Shown: one piece after another, positions 3,100 through 60,815 of the stretch | How the letters are laid out: the number at the start of each line of letters is the position of its first letter | Position numbering within the stretch: position 1 is the stretch's first letter | Source: Bdellovibrionales bacterium | Lineage (GTDB): Bacteria > Pseudomonadota > Alphaproteobacteria > UBA2400 | Direction: 5' to 3' | Length of the DNA: 64,000 bases | Assembly: GCA_039808765.1 (NCBI GenBank) | Contig: JBDHTQ010000007.1 | Span: 48,127 to 112,126, forward strand | The notes under the pieces: generated by a model | Seen by the model: only the letters and a program-made list of their open reading frames with translations | Database searches by the model: none | What the model was told of the DNA's origin: nothing | Translations under genes and position numbers: made by a program

Positions 3100-3254
3100 A
3101 ATTGACCGATAATTTTTGAGAATAGCAAATTTTTTTATTTAGGTAAATATTTTTTGTTTGTGAGTATTTAAATATATTTGAAGTAATTATCAATTTTTTA
3201 CTTGATAAATGAAATAAAAAGCGGATTATATCCCAATTAAATGCAAGGATATAC

Positions 3255-4400
3255 ATGAGTAAGCCGGAATTTAATGTACTCGCTCATCAACGGAATCAAT
3301 ATTGTTTTGAAGAAATATATATTTCAGATACCCATTTGGGAAGCCCTAACTGTGCATCACGTGTTTTGCTCGCTTTTTTAAATGCGATCACATCAAACCA
3401 TTACTATCTTATTGGTGATATGATTGATGGGCAGCGGATGCGTGCTTTTAAGCCTTTTTGGCCCTCGACCCATGAAGCTATCCTCGCTCAATTTAATCTT
3501 CGTGCTGCCGACCCAAAAACGACCATTGATTATATTAGCGGAAATCACGATGGTGGATTAGCTGTTTGGATGGCTGCCCACGGCATTTCAACTGATGACA
3601 ATCGTCAATGTTTGAAATATCGTGGTATTAATTTTCGCCAGCAAATGAAAGTTGATAATCCTTTACCTGATGAAGATGGTGTAAGACAACCCTTTATGGC
3701 CATACACGGTGATCGGTTTGATTCTACATTAAGTCATGGTCTCTTGCCGATGATTGGTGATGCGCTTTACGATGTTGTTTCGTGGCTCGATCGCGTTTTA
3801 AATCACTGGACAGATAAATTTAAACTTCCTCATATACCTTTTGCACGTACATTGAAACATGCTTTTAAAACGGTGGTTGGATTTCTCACAAAAACGGATA
3901 AGCGTCTTGCGGGCTATGTAGGCAATCATGGTCATAAGCGCGTTTTTAGCGGCCATACACACTACGCTGGTCGAAAAATGATTCATGATATTGAGTGTCT
4001 GAATACAGGCGACTGGGTGGCCAGCATGACAGCAATTGCACGTAACAAAAATGGTAAATTGGTGCAAATTGACTTTTTTCCCATTTATCAACAATACAGG
4101 CGTCTCCATAATATTGGTGATCCTGATCCTTCGCGCGCATTTGAAGCGTTGGCAGAAAAGTATGGCGCTCAAAAAGTAGAGGCGCGATCAGAATTAATTA
4201 CGCCTGAACTTTTTAATTTATCAAAAGATGGATATTTCGGATTAAAGAGAGGAGGTAATCGCCAATTTAAAACAGCTTATCCTGATTTGCTCTCACTCGC
4301 GATGTACGGAAAAAACCCCAATGAACTTAATGCGGGTCAGCCTCACATGAAGAGCTTTGAGACATCTTTATCAGCTATAGAGAGACCAAAAGTGGCATAA
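3255..4400 (+). CDS. Calcineurin-like metallophosphoesterase, UDP-2,3-diacylglucosamine diphosphatase (LpxH/LpxH2-like) family, with C-terminal extension
   Basis: Motifs SDTHLG, GDMIDG, GNHD, HGDRFD, GHTH, NTGDWV; AGGA SD before ATG. Confidence 0.8.
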   Translation: MSKPEFNVLAHQRNQYCFEEIYISDTHLGSPNCASRVLLAFLNAITSNHYYLIGDMIDGQRMRAFKPFWPSTHEAILAQFNLRAADPKTTIDYISGNHDGGLAVWMAAHGISTDDNRQCLKYRGINFRQQMKVDNPLPDEDGVRQPFMAIHGDRFDSTLSHGLLPMIGDALYDVVSWLDRVLNHWTDKFKLPHIPFARTLKHAFKTVVGFLTKTDKRLAGYVGNHGHKRVFSGHTHYAGRKMIHDIECLNTGDWVASMTAIARNKNGKLVQIDFFPIYQQYRRLHNIGDPDPSRAFEALAEKYGAQKVEARSELITPELFNLSKDGYFGLKRGGNRQFKTAYPDLLSLAMYGKNPNELNAGQPHMKSFETSLSAIERPKVA

Positions 4401-25953: not shown

Positions 25954-26637
25954 CTAGATAACAAACGGGTTTTTGCAACCATTTATATAATTTCTTCTCA
26001 TCGTTTCTGGGAGCTTAACAAGGCGTGGTCTTGCTGCCAATAAAAACTGTGGTACAAAGCCAAGTTTCTGTTGGGCTAACGCTGTAAAGATGACTGCATA
26101 GTATGCATCACCCTGCCAATTATACCTTGCCCCATAAGGCGCAGGCTGTTGTTCTAAGGATATGAATGGCTGACCATCATTATCCGTAAATAAACAGTTG
26201 ATCATATTTAGGGTGTTAGTTATATCAGCATCTCTGGTTTCAGGAGAGAAAGTAAGCAAACCCTCTGTGCGCGGGAATTTATCTGAAAAGGGATAAATAA
26301 TTTCACATGCCCTTAAAGCAATCTCACAAACGATTGATTCTGGATCACCATGGGTTGAATGATTCTGACTCAACAAGCCGATTGTGGCAGTGTTAGCGTG
26401 CCTCCGAAAGGAAAAATTTATTTTTTCTTTATGTTGCCATCGGTTAGAAACTTGATCGGTATAATTTTTTAACAAAAAAAAATCGTTGTCATTACAAAAG
26501 TCGAGTTGAATATGTATACTGTAAGAACCATTTACGATACCGAATTTAGAGATATCGCTTGTTGTTAAAAAGGCAAAAGTAAGGCGTGGAACGATCGCAC
26601 TCATCTGTGGTGTTACACCTACTCTTGTTTTGCTCAT
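25954..26637 (-). CDS. Hypothetical protein
   Basis: 227-aa ORF with GAGGA SD; no family recognised. Confidence 0.6.
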   Translation of the reverse strand: MSKTRVGVTPQMSAIVPRLTFAFLTTSDISKFGIVNGSYSIHIQLDFCNDNDFFLLKNYTDQVSNRWQHKEKINFSFRRHANTATIGLLSQNHSTHGDPESIVCEIALRACEIIYPFSDKFPRTEGLLTFSPETRDADITNTLNMINCLFTDNDGQPFISLEQQPAPYGARYNWQGDAYYAVIFTALAQQKLGFVPQFLLAARPRLVKLPETMRRNYINGCKNPFVI

Positions 26638-27290: not shown

Positions 27291-30200
27291 TCAAAAACTT
27301 TGAATCTCGATCACGCCGGGAATATTATAGAGAGATTGCTGATCCTCCTGCGAGAGTTGGTAGCGGCCATCAAGGCTAATTTCAGCTTCTTTTCCAGCTC
27401 CACACATCATTTTTAGGCTAATGGTTTGTTTATTTCCCCCCTCACCTTGCTTGCTCATGAGTTTTTGATGAAGAAGTTGCAATCCCTCACTGCCGTTCAA
27501 GGTGATAATTAATCCGTTTTGAACACGTTCTAATGCCTCGTCAAGCGATTCAATTTTAAAGCAGGTTAAACGCACACCTTCTTCTTGGGCTTGGACATCA
27601 ACCGAGGCCATAACTCTCTTGCCAGTTTCGAGAATATTTCTATTCGCAGCCAAAACCTCTGAAAACACCATCATCTCAACCACGCCTGAACTATCCGAAA
27701 GCTGAACAAATGCAAACGTATTGCCAGACTTTGATTTTTTAACAGTGGTAGAAAGAACAACCCCTGCAATACGAAATCGCGTCATGCTGGCACCGCGAGC
27801 ACGCCATGACAACTCAAGTATGGGAACAACCCGTAATCTATCTAAAATAACTTTAAATTGATCCAGTGGGTGAGCTGAGAGAAAAAAGCCGATTGCGCTA
27901 AATTCTTCCTGTAGCTTTGTCATTGAATCCCAGTTTTGCACTTTTCTAAGAGCTGGAAGGCTGTTTTGATCGTCTCCACCAAACAGGTTAACCTGTCCGC
28001 TTGCTTTTTCGACTTGAAGGCGTTGACCATATCCCATTAGCAAATCAATATTGGCAATAAGTTGTGCGCGATTGGGTGAGAGCGTATCAAAGGCACCCGC
28101 TTTTGCAAGATTTTCCAGCGTTTTTCGATTGCATGAACCATAATCAACACGCCTGAAAAAATCAGCAAGATCAGAATATTTTCCATCTTCATTACGGTTG
28201 CGCACAAGCAGTGACATGCCATGCGCACCAACGCCTTTTATTGCTGAAAGTGCATAGCGAATGGCTTTCTTTCCATCAGGCAAAACCTCCACGGCAAAAT
28301 CTTTGTACGACCATTGCACATCAGGTGGCAGCAAGGTTATTCCCATGCGCTCAAGCTCTTGTCTGAAGAGGCAAAGTTTATCAGTATTGCCGATATCATA
28401 CGTCATGGAAGCGGCCATGAATTCGATTGGATGGTTCGCTTTTAGATAGGCCGTCTGATACGAAATTAATGCATAGGCCGCAGCATGACTTTTGTTGAAG
28501 CCGTAGTCAGCAAATTTAGCCATCAGGTCAAAGACACGATTGGCATCTTCATCGCTTACACCATTTTTGATCGATCCTTCTACAAAAATACTGCGCTGCT
28601 TATCCATCTCCTCTTTAATTTTTTTACCCATTGCGCGCCGCAGTAAATCTGCGCCGCCAAGCGAGTAACCCGCCATAACCTTACCAATTTCCATCACCTG
28701 TTCTTGATAGACCATGATGCCGTAGGTTTCTTTCAAAATATTTTCGAGCATTGCATGGGGGTACTCGGGCTTTGCCACACCATTTTTTACATCTGCATAT
28801 ACGGGTATATTAGCCATGGGGCCGGGACGGTAGAGCGCAACAAGCGCAATGATATCCTCAATTCGATCAGGCCGAATACGTCGTAAAGCATCACGCATTC
28901 CCGCAGATTCTACTTGAAACACACCCATTGTTTCAGCTTTCTGCAGGAGGGTGTAGGTTTTTGAATCATCAAGCGGAATCCCATCAATATCTGGCGCTGT
29001 TCCATCCTGTACGTTGATCATATCAACCGCACGCTTGATTACTGTAATTGTTTTTAATCCTAAAAAGTCGAACTTAACCAGACCTGCCTGCTCAACATAT
29101 TTTAAATTAAATTGTGTAGCGGGTAAAGTTGAGCGCGGATCCAGAAAGAGGGGCACAAGATGAGAAATTGGTCGATCACCGATAACCACTCCGGCTGCGT
29201 GCGTCGATGCATGCCGATAAAGCCCTTCAAGCTTTTGAGCAATTTCTACCAGCCGATCATTCCCCTCCTCTGCTTTGATCATCTCTTGCAGCATTGGTTC
29301 GCCTTCTATCGCTTGCGAGAGAGTTACCGGATGAGCGGGATTGTTTGGTACAAGTTTACAAAGCTTATCAACCCGGCTCCATGAAAATCCGAGCACACGC
29401 CCAACATCGCGCAAAACCGCACGTGCTTGAAGTTTTCCGAACGTAATAATTTGCGCAACACGATCTTTGCCATACTTCTCTTGCACATAATCAATAACTT
29501 CCTCGCGTCTGTCCTGACAAAAATCAACGTCGAAGTCCGGCATAGAAACGCGTTCAGGATTAAGAAACCGCTCAAACAGTAAATTGAAAGGAATCGGATT
29601 AATATTGGTAATCGTCAGCGCCCAAGCAACCAACGATCCAGCTCCCGAACCACGACCAGGCCCCACGGGAATATCGTGAGCTTTTGCCCACTTAATAAAA
29701 TCAGATGTGATGAGAAAATAACCGGGAAATCCCATTTTACAGATTACAGAAAGCTCCATTTCCAACCGATCACGGTACATGTCCTTTTCTTCTTCAGTCA
29801 ACGACATTTTACCAAAGCGCTTTTCCAGACCATCGCGGCTTTGCTGAATAAATTCTTCTTCTTCGTTTCTTCCTTCTGCTGATTCAAACGGTGGCAAAAT
29901 AGGCTTGTGCTTCTTCACCATAAAGGCACAGCGCTGGGCGATGTGAACCGTATTTTCTACCGCTTCTGGCAGATCAGCAAAAAGCATTCTCATTTCGGCG
30001 CTTGATTTGAAAAAATGCTCTGGTGAAACACGTCGGCGATTATTTTCATCGATAATCACGCCCTGTGCAATGCAAAGCAGCGCATCTTGCGCTTCATACA
30101 TCCCTGCATCAGCAAAGTAACAATCGTTGGTAGCAACGAGGGGGAGGTTATGTTTGTAAGCAAGATTGATTAAATCAGCCTCAATTTTATTTTCAGTTGT

Positions 30201-30728
30201 CAGATTGTGGCGTTGAATTTCAATATAGAGGCGGTTTTCAAAAAGAGACTTAAGTCTAAGAAGCATGTTTTCAGCTTCATCTTTTTGTCCATCAAGCAAC
30301 AAACGGCCCACTGGACTGTCGATGCTGCCAGTAAAAACAATTAATCCTTCATGGTGCTGCACGAATAAGTCCTGCGAAATCTGAGGCTCGGATTCCTGTG
30401 CACTATCGAGATACGCATGAGAGGAAAGCTGCATTAAATTGTGATAGCCTTGCTCGCTTTGAACAAGAAAAACCATTTTATCAGGCTGTTTTACGCCTTT
30501 ACCCTCAACGTCGCGTTTTATTGAAAGTTGACAACCGATAATCGGCTGGATGCCAGCATCTGCTGCCGCTAGCGAAAACTCAAGTGCGCCAAATAAATTG
30601 TTGCTGTCTGTGATCGCCACCGCAGGCATATCATTCTTGAGGCATAGTTTTATCAACGCCTTGGGATGGATAGCGCCCTCGGCCAGAGAATAGGACGAAT
30701 GGACACGAAGATGGATAAACTGGTTCAT
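27291..30728 (-). CDS. dnaE: DNA polymerase III alpha subunit
   Basis: PHP motif HLRVHSSYSL, GPGRGSGAGS, FERFLNPERVSMPDFDVDF, VKFDFLGL, YGFNKSHAAAY. Confidence 0.98.
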   Translation of the reverse strand: MNQFIHLRVHSSYSLAEGAIHPKALIKLCLKNDMPAVAITDSNNLFGALEFSLAAADAGIQPIIGCQLSIKRDVEGKGVKQPDKMVFLVQSEQGYHNLMQLSSHAYLDSAQESEPQISQDLFVQHHEGLIVFTGSIDSPVGRLLLDGQKDEAENMLLRLKSLFENRLYIEIQRHNLTTENKIEADLINLAYKHNLPLVATNDCYFADAGMYEAQDALLCIAQGVIIDENNRRRVSPEHFFKSSAEMRMLFADLPEAVENTVHIAQRCAFMVKKHKPILPPFESAEGRNEEEEFIQQSRDGLEKRFGKMSLTEEEKDMYRDRLEMELSVICKMGFPGYFLITSDFIKWAKAHDIPVGPGRGSGAGSLVAWALTITNINPIPFNLLFERFLNPERVSMPDFDVDFCQDRREEVIDYVQEKYGKDRVAQIITFGKLQARAVLRDVGRVLGFSWSRVDKLCKLVPNNPAHPVTLSQAIEGEPMLQEMIKAEEGNDRLVEIAQKLEGLYRHASTHAAGVVIGDRPISHLVPLFLDPRSTLPATQFNLKYVEQAGLVKFDFLGLKTITVIKRAVDMINVQDGTAPDIDGIPLDDSKTYTLLQKAETMGVFQVESAGMRDALRRIRPDRIEDIIALVALYRPGPMANIPVYADVKNGVAKPEYPHAMLENILKETYGIMVYQEQVMEIGKVMAGYSLGGADLLRRAMGKKIKEEMDKQRSIFVEGSIKNGVSDEDANRVFDLMAKFADYGFNKSHAAAYALISYQTAYLKANHPIEFMAASMTYDIGNTDKLCLFRQELERMGITLLPPDVQWSYKDFAVEVLPDGKKAIRYALSAIKGVGAHGMSLLVRNRNEDGKYSDLADFFRRVDYGSCNRKTLENLAKAGAFDTLSPNRAQLIANIDLLMGYGQRLQVEKASGQVNLFGGDDQNSLPALRKVQNWDSMTKLQEEFSAIGFFLSAHPLDQFKVILDRLRVVPILELSWRARGASMTRFRIAGVVLSTTVKKSKSGNTFAFVQLSDSSGVVEMMVFSEVLAANRNILETGKRVMASVDVQAQEEGVRLTCFKIESLDEALERVQNGLIITLNGSEGLQLLHQKLMSKQGEGGNKQTISLKMMCGAGKEAEISLDGRYQLSQEDQQSLYNIPGVIEIQSF

Positions 30729-30856
30729 TTAATCGTTATGGCGCGCAAAAAGCCAGCAATCAACTATTAACACTCAACAACGACATTTATCTTGTATTAT
30801 GTCTGGCCATTTGCTATAGGTGCTTGTGTATTCTAATATATTTTATGGAGATTTAA

Positions 30857-31894
30857 ATGGGTGATCTCGCTCTTCCAGCCGGCATGGAATTTATTGAGCT
30901 ACCGTTTGTTGGCAATCATCAGCTAGAATGTCGTGCTGTTAGCATTTACAAGAAACCGGTTGTTTGTCTCCAAATTGATGGTTTTCGTGTTGGTTTTTAT
31001 CTGAACCTCAATGATAAGGATGTCAATTGGCGCCCTATTATCGGTGGCATCGGCGCAGATTTGAGTTTTAATGAAGGCAACCATCTGGAGATTAAAAACT
31101 ATTATTATTCACAGCGCCTTCGGAAGGCTGCAGTTTTTTTGAATACTTGCGTTGGTGATCTGAGAGCAAATGAGAATTTGCCGATTTTCGATGATAATGA
31201 CCCCTCGTTTTTAAGGACGATAGTTTACAATGACAGAGTATGCGCCTTAACAGCAGCGGAAAGAAAATGTGTACACATACCTCTGGGTTTTTTTACACGA
31301 TTGGCTACACGGTTTGATATGGCCGCTGCCAACATGCGGCTTATGAATTTTGTAATGAGAATTCGTGGAGATGGTGGGGATTCAGATAAGGAACATGAAC
31401 ATCGTCTTATTCAAGAAGTCTTAGAAAATCGAGATCAAGTTTTATCAGATATGACTACCCTTGGTTTTGCTGTTACGTTTGAGAGTGATAAAATCACCGT
31501 ACCACCATTATCTGACCTGGAGAATCCACCAAACTTAGCTGAAATTGCTAATGAGCAACGCAACGTTGAGTTAGCGGCTAAAGCTGATGCTTGGAGTGTC
31601 ATCAAGAGATGCAGGACGAGATCCATAATGCTTAAGGGCGAGACTCGAGATTCCGCCATGGTATGCTTTACGGTTAATGAACGAGATCCGAAGAGAAACA
31701 GACTCCTTCACGCATTATGCCGGTTAGGTTTGAATCATGAAGTTGGTTATTCATGTTCTCGCGGTGAAAATTTACGTGATGCTATCATAATCCAGGGTAA
31801 AGCCGCATATGCTATTATCGACTATTACCGTTCGTTATCAGGGAATCCAGTTGTAAATCACCGGATGAGTGGGATTCGGGCAGTCCCCGGTTAG
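30857..31894 (+). CDS. Hypothetical protein, paralog 1 of a tandem three-gene family
   Basis: GGAG SD; shares PVVxxxIDGxxVxFY, WxPxxG, FNxG, YYxSxRL, GDLR, LGF, PPxL and ALxRLG blocks with 33655..35214. Confidence 0.75.
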   Translation: MGDLALPAGMEFIELPFVGNHQLECRAVSIYKKPVVCLQIDGFRVGFYLNLNDKDVNWRPIIGGIGADLSFNEGNHLEIKNYYYSQRLRKAAVFLNTCVGDLRANENLPIFDDNDPSFLRTIVYNDRVCALTAAERKCVHIPLGFFTRLATRFDMAAANMRLMNFVMRIRGDGGDSDKEHEHRLIQEVLENRDQVLSDMTTLGFAVTFESDKITVPPLSDLENPPNLAEIANEQRNVELAAKADAWSVIKRCRTRSIMLKGETRDSAMVCFTVNERDPKRNRLLHALCRLGLNHEVGYSCSRGENLRDAIIIQGKAAYAIIDYYRSLSGNPVVNHRMSGIRAVPG

Positions 31895-32058
31895 ATTTAT
31901 TTACCCAATAATATAACTTGTGATGAATGATGCCTTCGGCCAAAGAATAGATGGATGGACAAAAGCTACTCGTATTGAATCCCTCTTGCTTTATGCACAA
32001 AATTATTAGCAAAAAATTATTGCTATTGGCCTAGTGAATAGTCTACCATGAGCCAAAG

Positions 32059-32074
32059 TTAAGATGCTATTAAC
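32059..32074 (+). promoter_or_regulatory. CtrA-type binding box
   Basis: TTAA-GATGCTA-TTAAC matches the TTAA-N7-TTAAC consensus, 26 nt upstream of ATG 32101. Confidence 0.4.
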
Positions 32075-32100
32075 GTTTTCCCTAATTCCTTTAAGAGGTT

Positions 32101-33447
32101 ATGTACATGATTGCTTCAGATATTGAGGTTACACCAGACACAACTCCCCCGCGCTTGCCTGAAGGCGTGTCTTTGTGCTTTTTTCCATTAGTGAATGGGG
32201 AAACTTCGTCTGTGGTGCTTATTAATGGTAATCGCCCCGTAGTCGCAGTGAACTTTTGGGGAAATATTATTCCCTTTATAATTGAAAATGGTGATGTAAA
32301 CCCAAGCAGGAGCGGAAAATGGGTTCCATTTTTTGGTGTATCCCAAGATGGTGAGGCTGCACTCAATGAAGTTCCCCTTGACCTTGCTCTATGCCCAACC
32401 CTAGAAAAGGTTGCCGATTTTTTGGACGCAAAGCGAGATGAAGTAAATTCCTATATTCAAGCTAAGCGTAATTTTTTGAAATACCAAGCTCATGACCCAC
32501 GCTTATGTGCTGTAATCAATCAAGAATTCACACCACAAGATAATTACGAATATGCTGCCTTTTTATATGGTACTGGACTTCATTATATAACCCGAAAAAT
32601 TGAAATTGAGGGAGCTAGAAGAAGGCTTCAAGCGATTGCTCAAGACTTTAAGGAAGTCCAAATTAGTGGTCCTGAAACCCTCCATCAATTTACTTACGCA
32701 AGTAAAGAGCGATTGTCACTGATTCAAGACGGTGATGGTGGCATTTATAGCTGTGATAATATTTGTCGAGACCTTAAGACTTTGGGCTTTCAAACAGCTG
32801 TTCGTTATATCGATAGAGACCAGCCCCACCCAACAATATTAATCTATTTGGCAACGACCAGGGATAACGCCATTTTTTCAGCCTCTGGTTTTTCTTCCCC
32901 CCCAGCTCTTAATGACCTTAATGAGTTAAAAGATGATTATCTTGCGCAGGTTAGATCTGGTCGAACTGGAGTAATAGCAACCGATAGCTTTGGCCTTTTT
33001 GGATTTCTGCCGAGACGTGATCTTAGCGAAGGAGATCTGACTGCCACTAGTCCGGCAGAAAAATTTCTTGATTTACACGCTCTGCCTCATGCACGCATAC
33101 TCTATAACCGAAAATACCGTGGTCAATTCGTAACTATCGAGGTAGATGCCCACTCAACCAAAGGAAGTGGAATTGTTGCCGCTCTTACTGAATTAGGATA
33201 CACTCCAGTGATTGAGCCTCGAGGTGATTCGTGGTGTGTACCTCACGGGACTCCCGTGATAAATATTGTAAATAATCATAATTCTGTTCCAGTAGTCATG
33301 AATTTTAATCGCTTGAGAGACGACGGTTTTGTCTTCAGAAGGAAGGATTTCTCTCGAGATAATCCCACCAGCGTCGCCGGAGAAGGTCCTGTAAAGTTAA
33401 CTTTAGCTGGTGGAGCGTGCCGTTTTAATGCCGATGCCTTCCGTTGA
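32101..33447 (+). CDS. Hypothetical protein, paralog 2 of a tandem three-gene family
   Basis: Shares PLxNG, GKWxPxFG, LxxVxDxLD, VIN, KIEIxGAxRRLQ, FSxPPAL, PVINxV and RFNA blocks with 33655..35214. Confidence 0.75.
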   Translation: MYMIASDIEVTPDTTPPRLPEGVSLCFFPLVNGETSSVVLINGNRPVVAVNFWGNIIPFIIENGDVNPSRSGKWVPFFGVSQDGEAALNEVPLDLALCPTLEKVADFLDAKRDEVNSYIQAKRNFLKYQAHDPRLCAVINQEFTPQDNYEYAAFLYGTGLHYITRKIEIEGARRRLQAIAQDFKEVQISGPETLHQFTYASKERLSLIQDGDGGIYSCDNICRDLKTLGFQTAVRYIDRDQPHPTILIYLATTRDNAIFSASGFSSPPALNDLNELKDDYLAQVRSGRTGVIATDSFGLFGFLPRRDLSEGDLTATSPAEKFLDLHALPHARILYNRKYRGQFVTIEVDAHSTKGSGIVAALTELGYTPVIEPRGDSWCVPHGTPVINIVNNHNSVPVVMNFNRLRDDGFVFRRKDFSRDNPTSVAGEGPVKLTLAGGACRFNADAFR

Positions 33448-33654
33448 GCTTTTCTCAAGAGTAGTGGGCGTTTTTTCTGAGCAGTAAGATATGTGTGAAT
33501 TTCCGCGCGCGTTATTCATGAAGTAGTTTTATGCCCGTTAGATCTTGGTCCTGACAGTGGGGTATGGCTTGTTTTTATAAAAAAATTTAATAGTTTATAA
33601 TATATTAATAAAAAAATTATAAAATAACACTCAGAATTTTTAAAGAGATAGCAT

Positions 33655-35214
33655 ATGAGTGTAGACACCCCATTACCTGGTGTAAAAGTTCAGCCAATTC
33701 CATTGCAAAATGGAGCGGAAGCGCGTGTTATCGCTATTCAAAAAGGTGATCAACCTCCCAGAGCCGTCGTTGTGATGGAAATTGATGGGGTGAATGTTCC
33801 GTTTTACTGTTCAACTGGAGCCGGTGGTAAAGACGTTCCAGCTGGAAAATGGTATCCTATTTTTGGCATGGGGTCACAAGGCTGGTTTAATAAAGGGAAA
33901 GATCCTGATATTCTAAGGTATTATGATAGCCCACGTTTGAAAGAGGTCTCTGATTACCTTGACAGGCAGATAGGGGATATTCGTAATCAACGTGTTTTTG
34001 CTTCTATTCCGCACGTTTCAGAGCTGGATGACAAAACGTTGAGCGTGATCAATCGCGATATGAACCCTATCAGTTTAAAAGAGGTTGAGAATGCTGATCC
34101 TGATTATTTTATTAATCAGGCACAAAAAATTGAAATTGCCGGGGCACAAAGAAGACTGCAAAAATATCAATTTGATAGTGCAGAGAATGCTACAAATGGC
34201 AAATTTTTTACAATTAACGTAAATGCCACGTCTGAAGAAGGTAAACAACTGATCGCAGATCTTGAAAAATCGGGGTTTAAGCCAAAAATAGAGGCCAGAT
34301 CAGGTTATGGACAATACCCCGTTATCAATTTGGTTGGTGAGGATGCGAATGTTTATCGTGACCATAAATTCTCAGAGCCCCCTGCACTGGCCAGGATAAA
34401 TTCGCAGCAAGCATCACTCCTTACAAAATGTACACAACACGCTGAATCTATTCTTAAGCAAGTGGATAGGGCATTTGGCAAATGGGTAGATGGTTCTTAT
34501 CAGCTTGAGGTTTATCCCAATTCCCATATCGGTAAGGAAATATCTGCAGCACTCGATCGGCTTGGATACCATAATTCAGCACCGGTTGATGTAGACGGAG
34601 CAGCATCATCCTTCGTCATTTCTGGTGCTGAAGCAGAGCGACTGTTTAAAGATCAGGGTTTTAAGGCTCCGATACAACAAGTTCATGGCTCAGCTCCGCA
34701 TTCTTCTGGAGGAGAGAGGCCGAGAGAGGTTCATTCCGCCTCGGCACGGTTTAATGCTACAGCGGAAAAGCCCAAATCTATGCATGGCCCGGCTGGCGTT
34801 TTGCTTGGTGCTGTCATGGGTGGGGTAAGTGCAGCGATGGACCATGGAGATATTGCGGATGGTATTGCCGTAGGGGCAATTGGAAGCACTGCTGTAGGGG
34901 GTGTTGGTTTATCGTTAGCAGAGGGAAAAATACACGAAGCAACACTTAGCACGATTGAAAATACTTTACCCTATTTGGGTCCAACTGCCGCAGCAGCAGC
35001 ATTAGTTGGTGGAGAGCTTTATCGTTCTGTTTCTTATGTTCTTGATGATCACTCAGATCCTACAAAAAGTGTTGATTTAGGGGTATTAGGAAGCTTCGGG
35101 AGTTGGATGGGGATAAAAGTTTATGACCTGACACATCCCGAGGAAAATCCACAAGACACGCCACAAGCCCCCCGAAGACCAGATACAAGTCCGCCTATTG
35201 GTTCGGTAATGTAG
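33655..35214 (+). CDS. Hypothetical protein, paralog 3, with a C-terminal glycine-zipper/hydrophobic region
   Basis: 519-aa ORF; N-terminal PFYCSTGAGGK...GKWYPIFG...GWFNKG; C-terminal GxxxG-rich helices. Confidence 0.8.
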   Translation: MSVDTPLPGVKVQPIPLQNGAEARVIAIQKGDQPPRAVVVMEIDGVNVPFYCSTGAGGKDVPAGKWYPIFGMGSQGWFNKGKDPDILRYYDSPRLKEVSDYLDRQIGDIRNQRVFASIPHVSELDDKTLSVINRDMNPISLKEVENADPDYFINQAQKIEIAGAQRRLQKYQFDSAENATNGKFFTINVNATSEEGKQLIADLEKSGFKPKIEARSGYGQYPVINLVGEDANVYRDHKFSEPPALARINSQQASLLTKCTQHAESILKQVDRAFGKWVDGSYQLEVYPNSHIGKEISAALDRLGYHNSAPVDVDGAASSFVISGAEAERLFKDQGFKAPIQQVHGSAPHSSGGERPREVHSASARFNATAEKPKSMHGPAGVLLGAVMGGVSAAMDHGDIADGIAVGAIGSTAVGGVGLSLAEGKIHEATLSTIENTLPYLGPTAAAAALVGGELYRSVSYVLDDHSDPTKSVDLGVLGSFGSWMGIKVYDLTHPEENPQDTPQAPRRPDTSPPIGSVM

Positions 35215-35236
35215 TCTTAGTTGTCATGCTTTTTAG

Positions 35237-35968
35237 CTAACCAAGTTGGCCATTATGAAGCGTAGCAATACGATCCATTTTGTGTGCCAAGTCATAGTTG
35301 TGGGTTGCGACCAAAGCGGCAAGGCCTTCCGAACGTGTTAAAGAACGCAAGAGGGCAAAAACCGTTTCAGCCGTTTCAGGATCAAGGTTGCCCGTCGGTT
35401 CATCAGCAATCAAAAGTTTTGGGTGGTTAGCCAAGGCACGGGCAATAGCCACCCGTTGTTGCTCTCCCCCAGACAGTTTTGCTGGCCGGTGAGATACACG
35501 ATTTTCAAGTCCTACTTTGTTTAAAAGTTCGAGGGCGCGTTTTTTGGCATTTGCTTTTGACACCCCTGCGATGAGTTGCGGCATCATCACATTCTCAAGG
35601 GCAGTGAATTCAGGCAACAAATGGTGAAATTGATAAACGAAACCGATTGTATGGCGGCGCAAAATCGTTCGTTCTTGATCATTAAGAGATTCGGACGGTT
35701 TATCGCCGATGATTACTTGGCCGCTTGTCGGCTTTTCCAATAATCCCGCAGAGTGTAGCAACGTTGATTTTCCCGCACCCGATGGCCCGACCAGCGCCAC
35801 CATTTCACCTTTGTTTATGATCAAATTAATACCCCGCAAAACCTCAAGCGGCTTGCCACTAGCTTGGGGATAATTGCGCTTCAGGTCAATGAGGCAAAGA
35901 GATTTTTCACCCATTCCCAACAAGGCTGATTTCTCAGCTGCGGTCACAACATCATTATGGTTATTCAT
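35237..35968 (-). CDS. lolD: Lipoprotein-releasing ABC transporter ATPase
   Basis: [45 protein letters not shown]; overlaps lolC/E. Confidence 0.95.
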
Positions 35969-37202
35969 GGCGCAAAGCCTCTACAGGATCAAGTTTAGCC
36001 GCTCGTCGGCTTGGATAAAGCGTGGCCGCAAAAGAGAGGAAAAGAGCCATCCCCACCACTTGCATGACCTCGGTATAATCAACGATAGCTGGCAGCTGGC
36101 TAAGGAAGTAGATTTCAGCATTAAAAAGATCAGTTCCTGTTAATCCTTGCAACCATTGGCGAATAGTCTCAATATTTTCTGCAAAAGCAACGCCTAAAAT
36201 CAACCCCAGAAATGTTCCAAAGACACCAATCGAAGCACCCGTTAAGAAAAAAATGCGTTGTATCATGCCTCTGGTAGCACCCATCGTGCGTAGTATGGCA
36301 ATATCCCTGCTTTTATCTTTAACGAGCATGATAAGGCTGGAGATAATATTGAAAGCAGCCACCATAATAATCAATGAAAGAATTAAAAACATGACATTGC
36401 GCTCAACTTGCAAGGCATTGGTAAAGCTGGCGTTCTGCTCTTTCCAGTCACGAACGATAACAGTTGGTTCTTGATCTTTAATCGCCTGTTTTATCTTGAT
36501 CAATTCATTGGCATCACGTGCGAAAACTTCGAGGGCCGAAACCGTGACGGGCATTTCAAAGAATAATTGAGCAGCAGGCAGGGGCATAAAGATATACCCA
36601 CTGTCATATTCATACATCCCAACATCATAAATGGCAGAGACAATATAGCTGGCAAACCGCGGGGTGGAACCAAAGACGGTATTGCGCCCTTGCGGGCTAA
36701 CCAGAGTGATCGTATCCCCGAGATAAACACCCAGATTTTCAGCTAGTCTCTTACCGATAGCAATGTGGTTATTGCTAAAATTCTTGAGCGAGCCGTTAAT
36801 GATGTGATCAGACAAAATGGGTTTGGTTTGAACATCCTTTTCTTCAATACCGCGGATAAGAACCCCTTGCGGTGTACCACGGCCAGTAATCAACGCCTGC
36901 CCCTGTATGGTGGGCGAAACGCGCATCACCCCATTAATTGTGCTGATGCGCTGAGCCATCTCATCGTAATTTGGCAAGGTTCCCTGAATAGAAAAAACAT
37001 TCATATGACCGTTTAAGCCAAGAACGCGTTGAAACAATTCAGCGCGAAAACCGTTCATGACCGACATGACGATGATGAGCGTCGCTACCCCAAGCGTAAT
37101 GCCGAGCAAAGAGAAAAGCGCAATGACTGAAATAAATCCCTCTTGCCGCCGCGCTCTCAAATAGCGCATTGCCACCATGCGTTCAAACGAAGAAAAAATC
37201 AT
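35961..37202 (-). CDS. lolC: Lipoprotein-releasing ABC transporter permease LolC/E
   Basis: [49 protein letters not shown]. Confidence 0.95.
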
Positions 37203-37215
37203 TGACTAACGCTCC

Positions 37216-38538
37216 TTAAATCACTGGCTTCTTGTCAGCGAGAAAAGCGAGCACTTCCTCGACTGATAAAAGGTGTGTTTCGCTATTTGTGCGATTTTTA
37301 AGCTCTACTTTTTGCATCGCGCAATTACGTGGGCTAACAATCACTTGCCACGGCGAACCGATTAAATCGGCATCTGCGAATTTAACCCCTGCCCTTTCAT
37401 CGCGATCATCATAGAGGACGGAAATATTTTTTTCTTGGCACGCGAGGTAAAGTGAATTTGCCAAGGCATCTGTGTCTGTATCACCGTTTTTCAAATTGAT
37501 AAGGATAGCAAAAAACGGCGCAACCGACGCTGGCCAGATGATCCCTTTATCATCATGGCTTGCCTCAATAATGGCTGCCACAAGGCGCGAAACGCCAATA
37601 CCGTATGACCCCATCTCTAGAGGATGTTCTGTACCGTCGGGATGGGTCACTGAAGCTTTCATGGGCTGAGAATATTTTGTCCCAAAGTAAAAAATATGGC
37701 CGACCTCAATTCCACGGGCAGAAACAAGATCAAGATTTTTAACCATATCAGGATCATGCTTTTCTTCTGTTGCTGAATAACGCGCGGTCAGTTTTTTAAA
37801 GAAGGGTTCTAAATCCTCATTATAATGTGGAGCATCCTGCAATGCATCTTCTTCAACCCATGATTTGTCACAAAAAACCTGACTTTCACCTGTTTCAGCC
37901 AGAACGATAAATTCATGGCTCATCTCTCCACCGATGGGACCGCTATCGGCACGCATGGGAATAGCACGCACGCCTAATGCTGCAAATGTACGAAGATATG
38001 AAAGAAACATTTTATAATACGATCTCTTTGCATCGTCATATGTGAGATCAAAAGAGTATCCATCCTTCATCAGAAATTCGCGTCCTCGCATCAAGCCAAA
38101 TCGCGGCCGAATTTCGTCACGAAACTTCCATTGCATATGCCAGAAGTTTTTAGGAACTTCGCGGTAGCTATGAATATGCGTACGCACGATATCTGTAATC
38201 ATCTCTTCATTTGTCGGCCCATAAAGCATTTCGCGGTTTTGGCGATCAGTTATGCGCAACATCTCCTTGCCATAATCATCGTAGCGACCACTTTCGCGCC
38301 ACAAGTCAGCCGACTGTAGCGTTGGCATCAAAACCTCAATTGAGCCTGCGTTTTCTTGCTCTTTACGAATGATTGATTGAATATTTTGTAGAACGCGCAA
38401 TCCCAAGGGCAACCATGAGTATATACCTGCAGACATCTGTTGAATCATTCCCGCGCGCAACATCAGCTTATGAGAAACAATTTGCGCTTCCGCCGGATCA
38501 CTCATAAGAGTGGAAATAAAATATTCACTTCGTTTCAT
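37216..38538 (-). CDS. proS: Proline--tRNA ligase, bacterial (P-) type, short alphaproteobacterial form without the INS editing domain
   Basis: [64 protein letters not shown]; ATG 38538 overlaps the upstream TAA (TAATG). Confidence 0.96.
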
Positions 38539-40076
38539 TAATACGCTCTCCCAAAAATAACTTCGTACTGAGCGGGTCTTCCTGTGATAACGCATGGACC
38601 AAGTGCCCTTGATTGCTCAAAGGGAATGCAACGAATTGTTACTCCCATACTCTTGAGCAAATCCTCGACTGCTGCCTCATCACCACAGAAAGGAGCTTTG
38701 ACAAACCCTTGCCCGTTGTTAAAGCTTTTTTCTCCTGAAGTGCCGAAGTAGTTTTTAAACTCTTCAACCGTTTTGATGTTTGTGCAGGTTCTCTCTTTTT
38801 GAATAGCTAAAGCCTGTTGATATAATGTCTCGTGACAATGTTTCAGTTCTTGACTGATATCAATTTTATCCAAGGGCATAACGGCTTTTTTCTCGTCCAG
38901 ATTAACGCGACGTGTAAGCGCCATAGCATTATTTTCAACATCACGCGGCCCGATTTCAATCAGCAGTGGTACACCTTTTTTAATCCACTGCCAGCGTTTA
39001 TCTGCACTCGGATAGTCACGTGTATCAATTTTCGCGCGTACACTTTGACCAGCAAACGTTTGCGAAGTGATTGAGGCGAGAACAGTTTCGCAATAGGCCA
39101 TGACTTTTTCCTGATCTGATTCATCGCGCATAATTGGAATGATCACGACCTGTTGCGGAGCCACAGCTGGCGGTACACGCAACCCGTTATCATCAGCATG
39201 GGTCATGATCAATGCACCGATCAGGCGCGTTGAAACACCCCATGAGGTGGTATAAGCAAACTCAATATTCCCTTCCTTGTTTTGGAAAGAGATATTAGAT
39301 GCTTTAGCAAAATTTTGCCCGAGATAGTGCGACGTTCCCGCCTGCACCGCTTTACCATCCTGCATCATGGCTTCAATACAATAGGTGTTAACAGCGCCCG
39401 GAAAACGTTCAGACGGCGTTTTTTCTCCGGGGATAACAGGAAGAGCCAAAATATTCTCCACAAACTCCTGATACACATCCAGCATCTGTTTTGTTTCAGA
39501 ACGAGCTTCCGCTTCACTTGCATGAGCTGTATGGCCTTCTTGCCAGAGAAATTCAGCAGTACGTAAAAAAATACGTGGCCGCATTTCCCATCGCACAACA
39601 TTGGCCCACTGGTTGATCAAAATTGGCAAATCGCGGTAGCTCTTTGTCCAGCGCGCGAAAGCTTCACCGATAATTGTTTCGGATGTTGGGCGCACAATTA
39701 ACGGTTCATCCAATTCACCATCAGGCACAAGTTGGCCATCCTTATTGATCAAGCGATGATGGGTAACGACAGCCATTTCTTTGGCGAAGCCCTCCACGTG
39801 ATCCGCTTCCTTTTGCAAGAGCGACATTGGAATAAAGAGCGGAAAATAAGCATTTTCATGCCCTGTTTCTTTAAAACGCCGATCTAGGTCACGGCTCATG
39901 AGCTCCCACAAGCCATAGCCCCATGGTTTCATCACCATACAGCCGCGCACACCAGACATTTCAGCCATGTCGGCTCCTTTGATGACCTGCTGATACCATT
40001 CTGGATAATCATCGGCGCGAATAGGTGTAATCGCTGTTTTTTGTGATTTTACCTGTTGTTGCGTATTGGCAGACAT
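38538..40076 (-). CDS. proS: Proline--tRNA ligase, eukaryote/archaea (E-) type
   Basis: [86 protein letters not shown] and terminal FGRAY. Confidence 0.96.
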
Positions 40077-52492: not shown

Positions 52493-53356
52493 TTATTTTA
52501 CATTTAACATGGGTACTGTATTATTCGGAACCATGGTTTGGGGTAAAACGCCATTCCATCGCTCTGCTTGAATTAACTGCACCATTTCAGGGTTGGTTTT
52601 AAGCGCTTCAGCACGTGCATGTATGGCCTTTGCTTCGGCTTCACCGCGTAAAGTAATCGCATCAGCTTCGGCTTGTGCTTGTGAGCGCAACGCATCAGCC
52701 TTACCCATGGCTTGTGCCCGGTTAATATCAGCTTGCACTTTTTCACGCTCAAGGTTTTGCTTGAGTTTTGCGACTTCAACTTCAGCTTGCATGCGTGCTT
52801 CAATACTCTGATCAAATGCATCTGAGAAGGCCACATCCTCCATTTGATACCCCTCAACCACAATGCCTTTAGCAGCAAGCTGTTCATTGAGTGTTTTCTC
52901 AATTTCAGCGCCAAGAGCAGTACGCTCACTGATAATATTTTGCGCGTTAAACTGTCCAAAGATTTCTTTGGTGATACGTGTTGTAAGCGGCATAATCAAA
53001 CTGGGCACATAGTTGAGGCCCAGCTCAGAATATACATCGCCTGCTTTGCTGGGGTCGATATGATAGTTCATGCTTATTTGAAGCTGCGCTGCTTGTATGT
53101 CACGTGAATAGGCTTCCATACGCGGAAAAGCCACCTTTTCAGTGCGTACAGACATTGGGCGTACTGTTTCAACAAACGGGATTTTGAATCCTATCCCCGG
53201 TGGTTCAACCCCAACGAGCGCACCAAAGCGAAGTTTGATGCCCACACTACCTTGTTCAACCGTATAAAAGCTGGCGTAAATGAGCAGTAACAGCACCACA
53301 ACCACATATGCAGCGGCCGGAATATTTTGACGTTGTTTGAAATCATAAACTGCCAT
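52493..53356 (-). CDS. Prohibitin-family (SPFH/band 7) membrane protein
   Basis: N-terminal TM, GIKLRFG...PGIGFKIPF, FSDAFDQSIE, AQAEADAITLRGEAEAKA coiled coil, RWNGVLP; start at ATG 53356 with GAGG SD. Confidence 0.9.
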   Translation of the reverse strand: MAVYDFKQRQNIPAAAYVVVVLLLLIYASFYTVEQGSVGIKLRFGALVGVEPPGIGFKIPFVETVRPMSVRTEKVAFPRMEAYSRDIQAAQLQISMNYHIDPSKAGDVYSELGLNYVPSLIMPLTTRITKEIFGQFNAQNIISERTALGAEIEKTLNEQLAAKGIVVEGYQMEDVAFSDAFDQSIEARMQAEVEVAKLKQNLEREKVQADINRAQAMGKADALRSQAQAEADAITLRGEAEAKAIHARAEALKTNPEMVQLIQAERWNGVLPQTMVPNNTVPMLNVK

Positions 53357-53906
53357 GGTGATCCTCTTCTGCCACATTAGATAAATGCGAAACGCGTGAA
53401 AGTTTTTTATCAAAAACAATCATGTGGGATTGATAATCATTTTTTTTGCACAACTCAATCATCGCGTCACATTGGGCTGGCCCGAACAAGCGAATGTGGG
53501 CAATATTTTTCTTGGAAAAAAAACTTTCGGTCGCCCGCAGCAACTGATCCGCCACATGCATGCGCCGCCAATTAGGCAAGACAAAAAGGTCTCTTACCAA
53601 AGCATGCTCTCGCACTGCTTCATGCAAAATCGGATCCGGATCAAACAAGCAATAAGAGGCAATAAAGCCGATTGGATTATCATTCGAGAAGGCAACAAAA
53701 ATGCAGCCATTATGCGTCGATGTTGTTTCAACCAGGTTACGGGCATAGTTTGGAGCAATTGCTCCCCCATGTTTGCGCGCCAACTTTTGATATTCTCGTT
53801 CATGCTCATATTGCATCGCGATGAAGGCAACAAGGCAAGGAAAATCTACCCCCACGCGATAGGGCCGTATGGCCAAGTTTTTATCTGTGAGAGGACGTGT
53901 GGTCAT
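53343..53906 (-). CDS. GNAT-family N-acetyltransferase
   Basis: IFVA...PIGFI, VRDLFVLPNWRRMHVADQLL (acetyl-CoA motif A), HIRL. Confidence 0.8.
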   Translation of the reverse strand: MTTRPLTDKNLAIRPYRVGVDFPCLVAFIAMQYEHEREYQKLARKHGGAIAPNYARNLVETTSTHNGCIFVAFSNDNPIGFIASYCLFDPDPILHEAVREHALVRDLFVLPNWRRMHVADQLLRATESFFSKKNIAHIRLFGPAQCDAMIELCKKNDYQSHMIVFDKKLSRVSHLSNVAEEDHHGSL

Positions 53907-59312: not shown

Positions 59313-60716
59313 TTAGGCGGCAGTTTTCTCTGTGATATCCTGCAAACCACGCTTTGCCGAAAAAGCATCAGGTGAATCATCAATATAGATTTTCAAATCG
59401 GGCACCGTTTTACTGATCACATGACCCAAAGCTTGCGCAAAAGGCCTTACAGTGGGATGCACAGTTGGGGATGATCTCAATTCAGCGATATAAACCAGTT
59501 GCGGCAAGCTGCAGCTTAATTGACATAAGCACATCATGCCCATCGGATAGAGATATTGATCTGCATAAGGATTGGTTTGTATGCCTTTACTTGAAAGGTT
59601 TGAGATTGCCGTTAAAAGTGTGCTCATGCTTTCTTGCAGGGATTGAAAACCTTCCTGACTCAACAACGATTCGAATTGCTGTAAATACCACGGGTGAAAG
59701 CCGAACCTTTGCCCCACCAGCGGCACGGGGTTATAAGCGTTCCGATGGCGTTGCATATCCCGGAATGATCCAAAATCCATCAGATAATATATGTTATACG
59801 TACCATATTGAATAATCCGACGGGATAAACCAATCCCACGTGGACGCTTGCAAAAGTAGTCTTTTTCGCGGGTATTCATAGCATCCAAATTAACCAATGA
59901 CCAATCTGCGATGAGTTCGCCATTTTTTAACTGCTGTTTTTCATCGTTTGTTAGTGTTGAGATAATCTGCTCCGGCTCGAGAATATGATCTGCGTGCGAA
60001 AATTCACTCCGGAAAGCTACTTGTTCCTGATGATAGGTTTTTTGAGGCTCAAGATCTTCCATTGTAAAACTATGCGGATATTTTTCGATAAGCTTCTTGT
60101 ACGTTTCGATAGCAATATTCTTCACCTCGTCAAGGGGATGTGACGCAAGACGAATCAAATTATCGCGCGCTTGACGTAAATTTGTATGCCAACTTGCATA
60201 ACTTTTAATTCCGCAAGGTAAAAGGCTGCGACAAATATCAAATGCACGCGCCGAGATTGCTTTTTCCCATTGGGTATTGGTTTGAAAATTTTCTTGATTA
60301 AACGGATAAGCAGTTTTGAGAGCGGTGGTCGTTTTTTCCAGTGTTTGGAGATAAATTTTCATCCATTGCTGTTGAATAGACGATGATTCGGGAGAATTAT
60401 ACGGATCAACGCATGTCTGATTCGAGTAATCGAGATAGCGGGTTGATGCTTCTTGTCCACTATAAAGCGGATTATCTTGAATTGCTTTGTTTGCCAGCAT
60501 GGAAACATTTTCCATGTAAAGGGTGGTTGAGCCGCAATCACCAATCGATGCATGGCCATAGCCAACATAATAACGGGCCATAAAACTGCCACTATCACCA
60601 TTTCTTACTTTTTCAATATGATCTATTACCGAACGTGGAGAGCGGCTATAAAGTGCCTGCAACATTGCATTATCTTCGGGGTGTAAATCATCAAAAATAT
60701 AAATTTGACTGTCCAT
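59313..60716 (-). CDS. thyX: FAD-dependent thymidylate synthase, long double-domain ThyX type
   Basis: ALYSRS, YVGYGHASIGD, QEASTRY, FDICRSLLP, DFGSFRDMQRHR, YIAELRS...VHP; ATG 60716 with GAGGAG SD. Confidence 0.85.
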   Translation of the reverse strand: MDSQIYIFDDLHPEDNAMLQALYSRSPRSVIDHIEKVRNGDSGSFMARYYVGYGHASIGDCGSTTLYMENVSMLANKAIQDNPLYSGQEASTRYLDYSNQTCVDPYNSPESSSIQQQWMKIYLQTLEKTTTALKTAYPFNQENFQTNTQWEKAISARAFDICRSLLPCGIKSYASWHTNLRQARDNLIRLASHPLDEVKNIAIETYKKLIEKYPHSFTMEDLEPQKTYHQEQVAFRSEFSHADHILEPEQIISTLTNDEKQQLKNGELIADWSLVNLDAMNTREKDYFCKRPRGIGLSRRIIQYGTYNIYYLMDFGSFRDMQRHRNAYNPVPLVGQRFGFHPWYLQQFESLLSQEGFQSLQESMSTLLTAISNLSSKGIQTNPYADQYLYPMGMMCLCQLSCSLPQLVYIAELRSSPTVHPTVRPFAQALGHVISKTVPDLKIYIDDSPDAFSAKRGLQDITEKTAA

Positions 60717-60815
60717 GGCTTTGCTCCTCGTTATTCCAAGCACGCACTAGACTAATGAAAAACGAGTAGTCGATCAACCGTTAATCAAGGAAAATAAAAA
60801 TTTTGAAGCCTAGGT

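Follow-up and report, generated by a model that had tools for sequence, protein, structure and literature searches.

What are three genes on the plus strand doing between dnaE, which encodes the alpha subunit of DNA polymerase III, and lolD, which encodes an ABC transporter ATPase, in the chromosome of a Bdellovibrionales bacterium of the alphaproteobacterial lineage UBA2400, and where did they come from? The genes, termed P1, P2 and P3 here, lie within a 64,000-nucleotide stretch of contig JBDHTQ010000007.1 (assembly GCA_039808765.1), which is referred to throughout as the window, and a preliminary description made from the sequence alone had presented them as diverged paralogs of an unrecognised, lineage-specific family of effectors or toxins. 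The array very probably represents a chromosomally fixed set of three diverged paralogs, which arose through bacterial capture of a small domain that otherwise occurs chiefly in giant multi-domain polyvalent proteins, which phages carry in their virions and eject into bacteria. We further propose, tentatively and with somewhat less than even confidence in the statement as a whole, that it constitutes a domesticated, fast-evolving conflict locus, in which P3 is the active, membrane-anchored member and P1 and P2 are its degenerate partners.

The three open reading frames (ORFs) were found on the plus strand exactly where they had been placed, encoding proteins of 345, 448 and 519 amino acids (aa), respectively, and each of the motif strings that had been quoted for them is present in the right protein. 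Their relationship as diverged paralogs was upheld by direct BLASTP alignment of P1 with P3 (E value 7e-14, 24% identity over 279 columns) and of P2 with P3 (E 3e-13, 27% over 280 columns, with a second segment at E 7e-06), the direct comparison of P1 with P2 being not significant (best E 0.79). Family-profile scores obtained in a single search (1.2e-50 for P3, 1.6e-29 for P1 and 6.3e-28 for P2), and those of a second profile search which also matched all three (7.8e-60, 3.7e-51 and 2.0e-47), are inflated because the three proteins are rows of the profiles' own seed alignments; at the sequence level, the independent evidence of paralogy is the pair of BLASTP alignments to P3. Outside the N-terminal domain all three proteins share a helix (KIEIAGAQRRLQ in P3, KIEIEGARRRLQ in P2 and RFDMAAANMRL in P1) as well as a PPxL motif, and on the basis of this shared architecture beyond the domain they are read as in-lineage duplicates. 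Remnants of the relationship are also apparent at the DNA level, with 37 nucleotides (nt) at 78% identity between P2 and P3 (32595-32631 versus 34125-34161, direct repeat D1) and 28 nt at 71% identity between P1 and P3. In a domain tree of 163 rows, 57 of them from proteins of at least 1,000 aa (the longest 5,777 aa), each of the three pairs with its own orthologue from a sister lineage, on stems of 0.92 (P3), 1.72 (P1) and 2.43 (P2), and the least number of origins of P1 to P3 that the well-supported branches force is one. As a separate observation, P2 and P3 are far more alike in DNA across their common 12-residue helix motif than in the remainder of both genes, pointing either to strong constraint or to gene conversion.

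The array is a lineage-restricted insertion. In all three same-family genomes (3/3) the start of dnaE abuts or overlaps a lolD gene, the product adjoining dnaE in these relatives being 67 to 72% identical to that of the window lolD, and the 4.5-kb block of three colinear paralogs therefore splits an ancestral dnaE-lolD junction, as had been suggested; this interpretation is well supported. The base composition of the block is also distinct, as the GC content at third codon positions (GC3) is 0.32 to 0.36 in P1 to P3 versus 0.39 to 0.49 in eight flanking core genes. The reported absence of a nearby integrase or transposase was confirmed by a Pfam scan of 53 of the 57 window ORFs of at least 150 aa, which left out four shadow ORFs located inside nuo genes. 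Furthermore, no direct repeats were found to flank the array, no repeat is common to the three spacers upstream of P1, P2 and P3, and no tRNA gene was detected between window positions 26000 and 41000.

The claim that the family is lineage-specific did not survive an exhaustive profile search with the N-terminal domain, which measures approximately 140 aa. This search, seeded with six domain sequences (three from the window and three from a Methylocystis metagenome-assembled genome [MAG]) and performed on a library of 1.84 billion representatives clustered at 50% identity, returned 666 clusters at E<=1e-3, 454 at E<=1e-10 and 27 at E<=1e-30, largely giant phage virion or polyvalent proteins, with P3 and P1 themselves among the sequences recovered. 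A word-indexed search with P3 returned only three relatives, the ESM Atlas offered no usable look-alikes of P3 aa 1-152, and tblastn yielded no match of that segment to annotated phages and plasmids, nor was a match to plasmids obtained with the relative P0025. The family is nevertheless unrecognised in the sense that no Pfam, NCBIfam or PADLOC model covers the domain. Pfam places no domain over this region of P1 to P3 at E<=1, nor over the domain itself in 17 giant and 74 smaller members at E<=1e-3. The Pfam-held models of large polyvalent protein-associated domains (LPDs), LPD38 among them, likewise do not match it in P1 to P3 or in those giant and smaller members, a result which sets the domain apart from those Pfam-held models only and not from the LPDs that appear solely in the supplement of Iyer et al. 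2017.

The company that the domain keeps is that of polyvalent proteins. Seven of the 17 giants carry recognisable partners (ADP-ribosyltransferase [ART], DUF3626, RNase T, UvrD, LPD38 and GNAT), as do five of the 74 smaller members (ART, PBECR1, FHA twice and HC2). Among viral genomes of IMG/VR, 46 loci were confirmed to contain the domain, and in 33 of these the ORF is 1,000 aa or longer; 8 of the 15 giant ORFs scanned carry ArdC-N, UvrD, RNase T, NUDIX, ART, GNAT or LPD38. According to Iyer et al. 2017 (PMC5512222), polyvalent proteins combine, in a single polypeptide, between two and 15 domains whose biochemical activities are disparate, LPD1-40 being the large polyvalent protein-associated domains; LPD38 is described there as restricted to phage-type polyvalent proteins, and several LPDs also occur solo outside such proteins. 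The partner set of ArdC-N, UvrD, RNase T, NUDIX, ART, GNAT and LPD38 is the hallmark of polyvalent proteins (PMC5512222). The domain has no fixed neighbour within the giants, as the largest cluster of flanking sequences accounts for 8 of 52 upstream and 5 of 56 downstream flanks, and the solo viral versions are set among genes for DnaB-like helicase, MazG, dNMP kinase, NUDIX, ParB, head-tail adaptor and tail sheath proteins. A named example was located by tblastn in gp039 of the cultured Cellulophaga phage phi17:2, which carries the domain near its C terminus (approximately aa 1702-1749); this protein of 1,957 aa is designated a structural protein by similarity to phi4:1 gp38 and is encoded in a row of giant virion proteins. 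The length of gp039 and the position of the match correspond to phrog_32390, a family whose function is listed as unknown and whose segment at approximately 1700-1775 is the domain (E 8e-04 with P3, 3.1e-06 with P0005 and 1.4e-06 with P0033), and 12 of the 18 family members tested match phrog_32390. As a side observation, the FHA domain, which binds phosphothreonine, lies behind the domain in the small members P0045 and P0104, a faint hint of a link to phospho-signalling.

In cellular genomes the domain is rare. It was found in none of 40 relatives and in none of 400 other genomes sampled from the class, and a scan of species-representative genomes gave one match, the Methylocystis MAG mentioned above, in whose family none of 100 other sampled genomes contains it. 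This MAG harbors six copies in two tandem arrays (L009, 2592-9348; L074, 8315-9870), one of which includes a truncated copy of 181 aa, the other being located between ybgC (encoding a 4HBT thioesterase) and tolQ. Several of the copies open with a conserved 'MS(I/V)TNTTPLP' leader, after which come linkers rich in Pro and Ser; this part may act as a signal for export. The Methylocystis arrays resemble the present locus in being cellular, chromosomal tandem copies among core genes, with a GC3 below that of their neighbours and a patchy occurrence; they differ in that the domain is C-terminal, that alpha/beta modules are absent and that the three copies aligned keep 22 to 23 of the 23 signature positions. 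Literature searches on polyvalent proteins, Cellulophaga phage virions and glycine-zipper bacteriocins, none of which was aimed at the domain itself, brought up no paper on it.

The domain signature, PFYxSTGxGGK / WYPxFG / GWxNK / GDxR, comprises 23 positions that are conserved in at least 90% of a 51-sequence alignment. The preliminary description had noted that only P3 keeps the motifs, and the counts agree: P3 retains all 23 residues, P1 and P2 retain 12 each, and each of the other 48 rows of the alignment retains at least 19. Residues S53, K59, Y67, W77 and K80 are lost in both P1 and P2. Because the sister-lineage orthologues share the signature states of P1 and P2 (that of P3 being intact, with 23/23), the loss predates the split of the two lineages, and the genes have been kept open since.

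An AlphaFold2 model of P3 aa 1-152, built from the 51-sequence alignment, has a predicted local distance difference test score (pLDDT) of 91.0 and a predicted template modelling score (pTM) of 0.86, and consists of five beta strands followed by helices, with STGxGGK in the loop between strands 4 and 5. The model matches predicted structures of giant phage proteins in BFVD (E 1e-11 and 6e-10, template modelling [TM] scores 0.77 and 0.74), a same-fold comparison which covers the P3 domain model only, and Foldseek found no chain of the PDB at E<=1e-3. Similarly, VIA-align found none of 48,161 representative chains at Z>=5, its best match being to PH-like folds, of which the PH domain of SHARPIN (4emo) is an example (Z 4.0, root mean square deviation 4.0 Å over 79 residues), and the domain profile has no sequence relative in the PDB, where the best E of 0.057 is a chance helix match. 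PH-, EVH1- and Ran-binding-like domains dominate the many weak structural matches, yet they have no sequence relation to the domain and their Z scores of 2.5 to 4.0 fall below the level that VIA-align itself deems meaningful; they offer only a hint that the modelled domain may serve in binding instead of acting as an enzyme. The 'FYxSTG' of the signature recalls the 'STS' motif of ADP-ribosyltransferases, an identity that was dropped, as no ART family of Pfam matches the domain and no ART structure appeared in either PDB search. Readings of STGxGGK as a P-loop, as part of an ASKHA fold or as a kinase G-loop likewise gained no structural support from VIA-align. The single-sequence AlphaFold2 model of whole P3 (pLDDT 36.8) is uninformative for the modules and the tail.

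Beyond the domain, P2 and P3 each carry two small alpha/beta modules, those of P3 being beta-alpha-beta-beta units of about 55 aa. A hidden Markov model (HMM) of the module matches, among 162 proteins, only P2, P3, P0004, P0005, P0006 and P0015, and in the ORFs of the genome itself it is significant only for P2 and P3, with a 68-aa ORF on contig C3 marginal (E 0.0073). The C-terminal half of P1 is diverged. P3 ends in a hydrophobic tail, which neither P1 nor P2 possesses: 43% of its last 160 residues are Gly, Ala, Ser or Val, it terminates in YDLTHPEE and a Pro-rich stretch, and within it aa 403-422 form a single strongly hydrophobic segment, whose mean hydropathy is 1.4 or more. Its glycine motifs are one strict GxxxGxxxG (aa 381) and four [GAS]xxx[GAS]xxx[GAS]xxx[GAS] runs, compared with six strict motifs in the relative P0006. 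The tail is reused in a 333-aa protein on another contig of the genome (C2), whose N-terminal part is unrelated (E 3e-09). A jackhmmer search with the tail found no carrier among the ORFs of the genome beyond these two, and a word-indexed search with the tail alone returned only the orthologue. The gene for the 333-aa protein is itself accompanied by ORFs of 331 and 263 aa (L004, G000:C2:236836-240291; the three genes at 162-1157, 1387-2388 and 2616-3407, all on the minus strand). By eye, these two neighbours share '...FNLW(L/A)G...' and may form a second lineage-specific set of paralogs, with no PADLOC match.

The same arrangement is present in a sister lineage. An independent contig of 17,652 bases from a diverged relative is colinear over window positions 29500-36500, in the order dnaE-P1-P2-P3-lolD, with 29 differences in 1,411 bases of dnaE, approximately 91% identity in P2 and P3 where these align, and parts of P1 which are of the same length and diverged. 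All three reading frames are open at full length in both lineages. The proteins have changed at markedly different rates, with identities between the lineages of 98% for DnaE, 88% for P3 (P0004), 73% for P2 (P0015) and 48% for P1 (P0102) by BLASTP, or 49% by global alignment. Among named organisms, the nearest relatives of DnaE are Azospirillum-like, with identities of at most 59%. Within P3 the tail and module A are each 98% identical and the N-terminal domain 86%; within P2 the N-terminal domain is 83% identical, the linker at aa 263-342 90% and module A 46%; across P1 the values range from 32 to 64%. The sequence comparison supports the view that, in the manner of conflict genes, the array has a much higher rate of evolution than the genes on either side. 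P0015 begins at the third codon of P2 (ATG, 32107), for which reason the true start of P2 may be located there.

Where, then, might the proteins act? No N-terminal hydrophobic signal segment was detected in P1, P2 or P3, and the VirB4, VirD4 and TssC families gave no match in the genome, which is 97.3% complete, in searches whose controls were positive. These families are markers of type IV and type VI secretion, and in this respect the effector reading of the preliminary description is not supported as written; the proteins are, on these grounds, provisionally placed in the cytoplasm of the producer. Its labels of enzyme, toxin, immunity and decoy are likewise not supported as written, no catalytic or known toxin fold having been found. 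A search for the TLC transporter family was uninformative, as none of the control genomes gave a match.

We propose that all three proteins would remain in the cytoplasm of their producer, where P3 would be anchored at the inner membrane by its Gly/Ala-rich hydrophobic tail, with its intact domain facing the cytoplasm. This domain would bind or modify a phosphate-bearing ligand or macromolecule through the STGxGGK hairpin and a cluster of W, Y, N, K, D and R residues; that the ligand bears phosphate is a guess, suggested by the glycine-rich hairpin together with the conserved Lys, Asn, Asp, Arg and aromatic residues. As the phage versions are presumed to work in the cytoplasm of the bacterium as soon as they have been ejected, a cellular copy would meet the same kind of target, and the target class may be that which the phage versions encounter just after injection. 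P1 and P2, which lack the site and have nonetheless been kept, would be catalytically inactive partners of P3 or its decoys, probably within a hetero-complex of paralogs held together by the shared helix and the alpha/beta modules. The outcome may be a role in conflict, for example phage exclusion or abortive infection, exerted by perturbation of the membrane through the tail. Taken as a whole, this particular mechanism is less likely than not, and far more doubtful than the identification of the array as a fixed set of paralogs with a captured phage domain. A bolder version holds that both the fold of the domain and its ligand-binding or catalytic activity are new, that phages inject the domain into bacteria and that it has here been turned against invaders or prey, P3 being a sensor or effector with a membrane-perforating tail and the pseudo-domain paralogs its decoys or regulators. 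We consider this version unlikely; if true, it would make the array a three-gene conflict system of an undescribed kind, built wholly by the duplication of one captured phage gene.

Several results weigh against the conflict-locus reading and deserve to be stated together. PADLOC-DB 2.0 contains no family that matches P1, P2 or P3 at E<=0.01, and the array lies among core genes rather than within a defence island. In favour of the reading, a PADLOC candidate defence model, PDC-M09B, matches the tail of the P3-like relative P0006 (residues 274-384, its Gly-zipper region) at E 2.6e-08, but this may reflect glycine-rich composition only, and the P3 tail has no such match. Owing to the absence of a PDB match, the VIA-align Z scores of no more than 4.0 and the lack of a sequence relative in the PDB, the modelled fold of the P3 domain yields no readable biochemical activity. 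Insertion of the tail into a membrane can only be presumed, as the tail has just one clearly hydrophobic segment and one strict GxxxGxxxG. The leaders and Pro/Ser-rich linkers of the Methylocystis proteins fit exported better than cytoplasmic proteins. Finally, P1, P2 and P3 are not recovered as one clade in the domain tree, the deep nodes of which are poorly supported, and the placing of the orthologues P0015 and P0102 on sister-lineage contigs is presumptive.

Export is the premise of the main alternative, which is close to the preliminary description and which we regard as rather unlikely; P3 would here be an antibacterial effector that leaves the cell by type I secretion, in vesicles or by surface display as in Cdz-type glycine-zipper bacteriocins, its tail entering the membrane of a neighbour or prey where the domain then acts, with P1 and P2 as immunity proteins or regulators. 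The ancestral site of action of the domain, delivered as part of virion-packed polyvalent proteins, is indeed the cytoplasm of another bacterium, and contact-killing glycine-zipper proteins are described for Caulobacter (PMC5380434). The locus sets intact and degenerate copies side by side, and its N-terminal domain and P1/P2 change rapidly as the tail stays conserved, in the manner of co-evolving toxin-immunity pairs; the tail is moreover common to a second protein with an unrelated N-terminal part, as would be expected of a delivery module. In Methylocystis, the C-terminal position of the domain behind conserved leaders and the additional truncated copy are both features of polymorphic-toxin loci. 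However, P1 to P3 have no signal peptide, the secretion markers VirB4, VirD4 and TssC were not found, no exporter gene is located next to the array as judged by the Pfam families of the neighbours, and the toxin-like part occupies the N terminus, opposite to the order seen in polymorphic toxins. It is, in addition, uncommon for an immunity protein to be a degenerate paralog of the toxin that it counters. Orphan paralog arrays of small alphaproteobacterial genomes are classically read as aimed at a eukaryotic host, and this genome is indeed small (1.94 Mb), its proteins lineage-specific and fast-evolving, and the hydrophobic tail of a kind that could anchor in a host membrane. Against this, the domain family resides in phages of bacteria and in the free-living Methylocystis, neither VirB4, VirD4 and TssC nor ankyrin repeats were found in the genome, and the sequencing runs in which the stretch occurs come from metagenomes of activated sludge and wastewater; delivery to a eukaryotic host by secretion, already disfavoured, is not supported, and we regard it as highly improbable.

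The two other alternatives dispense with conflict altogether. It may be asked whether the array is a functionless, drifting remnant of a cargo gene from a decayed prophage or island that happened to duplicate. The phage origin of the domain, the loss of the signature in P1 and P2, the mere 48% or so of identity that P1 retains with its orthologue, and the fact that no RNA run is listed among the sequencing runs holding the stretch could all be accommodated by drift. Full-length open frames of all three genes in both lineages could not readily be so, nor could the 23/23 signature residues of both P3 and its orthologue, a P3 tail and module A as conserved as DnaE (98%), the conservation of the degenerate domain (83%) and linker at aa 263-342 (90%) of P2, or the Shine-Dalgarno-like motif that precedes each gene, and decay is consequently given very little probability. 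Scarcely more is accorded to a non-conflict cellular accessory, for instance an envelope- or membrane-associated factor which reuses a phage-derived binding domain. The array lies beside lolCDE, and one Methylocystis array lies between ybgC and tolQ, such that both sets of neighbours are envelope systems; the membrane tail of P3 and the weak PH-like binding folds that dominate the VIA-align list would also suit such a factor. Two insertion sites are, however, too few to argue for a functional link, the array evolves far faster than its neighbours, and the patchy distribution of the domain (0/400 genomes of the class and 0/100 of the Methylocystis family) is a poor fit to a housekeeping role.

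Returning to the capture of a phage domain, comparison with known systems helps to delimit what the array is. Like polyvalent proteins, P1 to P3 possess an N-terminal domain homologous to a module found beside ArdC-N, UvrD, RNase T, NUDIX, ART, GNAT, PBECR1 and LPD38, one which shuffles freely among giant proteins. Unlike them, P1 to P3 are short, with one recognisable domain, small modules and a tail and with no Pfam domain; they are chromosomal, among core genes and at a site that is also occupied in the sister lineage, and not on a phage, plasmid or conjugative element; and they are equipped with lineage-specific alpha/beta modules, P3 having a hydrophobic tail as well. The relationship to phrog_32390/gp039 is one of a shared segment (approximately 1700-1775), which forms a small part of a giant virion protein there and the N terminus of small cellular proteins here. 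The Cdz-type glycine-zipper bacteriocins of Caulobacter (PMC5380434) are comparable in being alphaproteobacterial proteins with a Gly-rich hydrophobic, possibly membrane-associating region; P3 differs from them in the single strict GxxxGxxxG of its tail in place of long zipper repeats, its large N-terminal domain and its lack of adjacent type I exporter genes. Polymorphic toxin/immunity loci pair an N-terminal trafficking domain tied to a secretion system with a C-terminal toxin and an immunity gene directly downstream; in the array the conserved domain is N-terminal and no small ORF directly follows P3, and VirB4, VirD4 and TssC were not found in the genome. P1 to P3 are accordingly best regarded as a phage polyvalent-protein module that stands solo, has been domesticated in a chromosome and has been triplicated, with two natural copies lacking the signature and with a membrane tail in P3.

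Table 1. Features of the dnaE-P1-P2-P3-lolD region, in window coordinates
Feature	Position	Strand	Residues (aa)	Basis or remark
dnaE (left flank)	27291..30728	-		Pfam PHP, DNA_pol3_alpha, finger, HHH_6, OB
Divergent spacer (128 bp), dnaE start to P1 start	30729..30856			GGAG 8 nt 5' of the P1 ATG
P1	30857..31894	+		ORF call
P1 degenerate N-terminal domain	30857-31300	+	1-148	Profile match
P2	32101..33447 (start possibly 32107)	+		ORF call
P2 degenerate N-terminal domain	32101-32559	+	1-153	Profile match
P2 small alpha/beta module	32716-32886	+	206-262	Module HMM
P2 small alpha/beta module	33127-33288	+	343-396	Module HMM
P3 (whole gene)	33655..35214	+		ORF call
P3 intact N-terminal domain	33655..34110	+	1-152	PFYxSTGxGGK, WYPIFG, GWFNKG, GDIR
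P3 helix motif	34125..34161	+		DNA repeat with P2 32595-32631; protein alignment
P3 two modules	34204..34656	+	184-238, 281-334	Internal BLASTP repeat
P3 C-terminal tail	34750..35211	+	366-519	Hydropathy, motif counts
lolD (right flank, convergent with P3)	35237..35968	-		Pfam ABC_tran

The stop codons of P3 and lolD are separated by 22 bp. Promoter-like sites (16 versus 10.3 +/- 3.2 in shuffled sequence) and terminator-like sites (8 versus 5.2 +/- 2.2) were uninformative. The rest of the window is occupied by core genes, including the nuo operon, lpx genes, bamA, rseP, a run of rpsB-tsf-pyrH-frr-uppS-cdsA, birA, the gene for RNase J, proS and lolCD. A few of its genes merit mention in their own right. 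A 227-aa ORF between rpsB and dnaE (25954-26637, minus strand) has no Pfam family, a GC content of 0.389 and a first-position GC content (GC1) of 0.43, and may be another lineage-specific gene of the core region. At 37216-40076 (minus strand), two genes for prolyl-tRNA synthetase follow each other head to tail, the ends of their ORFs overlapping; the first-named type encodes 459 aa (class II core and anticodon-binding domains) and the second 512 aa with ProRS-C_1, which we take to be typical of the archaeal/eukaryote-like type; the corresponding position in two relatives (G001 and G002) holds an ORF of 514 and 513 aa, respectively. Genes for an SPFH/Band 7 protein and a GNAT acetyltransferase are located within the nuo operon (52493-53906, minus strand), between the Complex1_51K (nuoF-like) gene and the NuoG-like gene. 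Lastly, a 476-aa ORF at 59313-60743 (minus strand) matches ThyX (Thy1) only at residues 38-224, its C-terminal half being without a Pfam match.

The domain is widespread, with its 666 clusters, and recurrent in giant phage proteins that are packed into virions, yet it is without a curated family. Giant polyvalent proteins are hard to study, and the array described here presents the domain nearly alone, in small proteins of soluble size, with an intact copy beside two signature-less copies that act as built-in controls and thus render the phage module directly testable. Should the array turn out to defend the cell or to act as an antibacterial weapon, it would illustrate cleanly how a host can assemble a multi-gene system out of a single captured phage gene.

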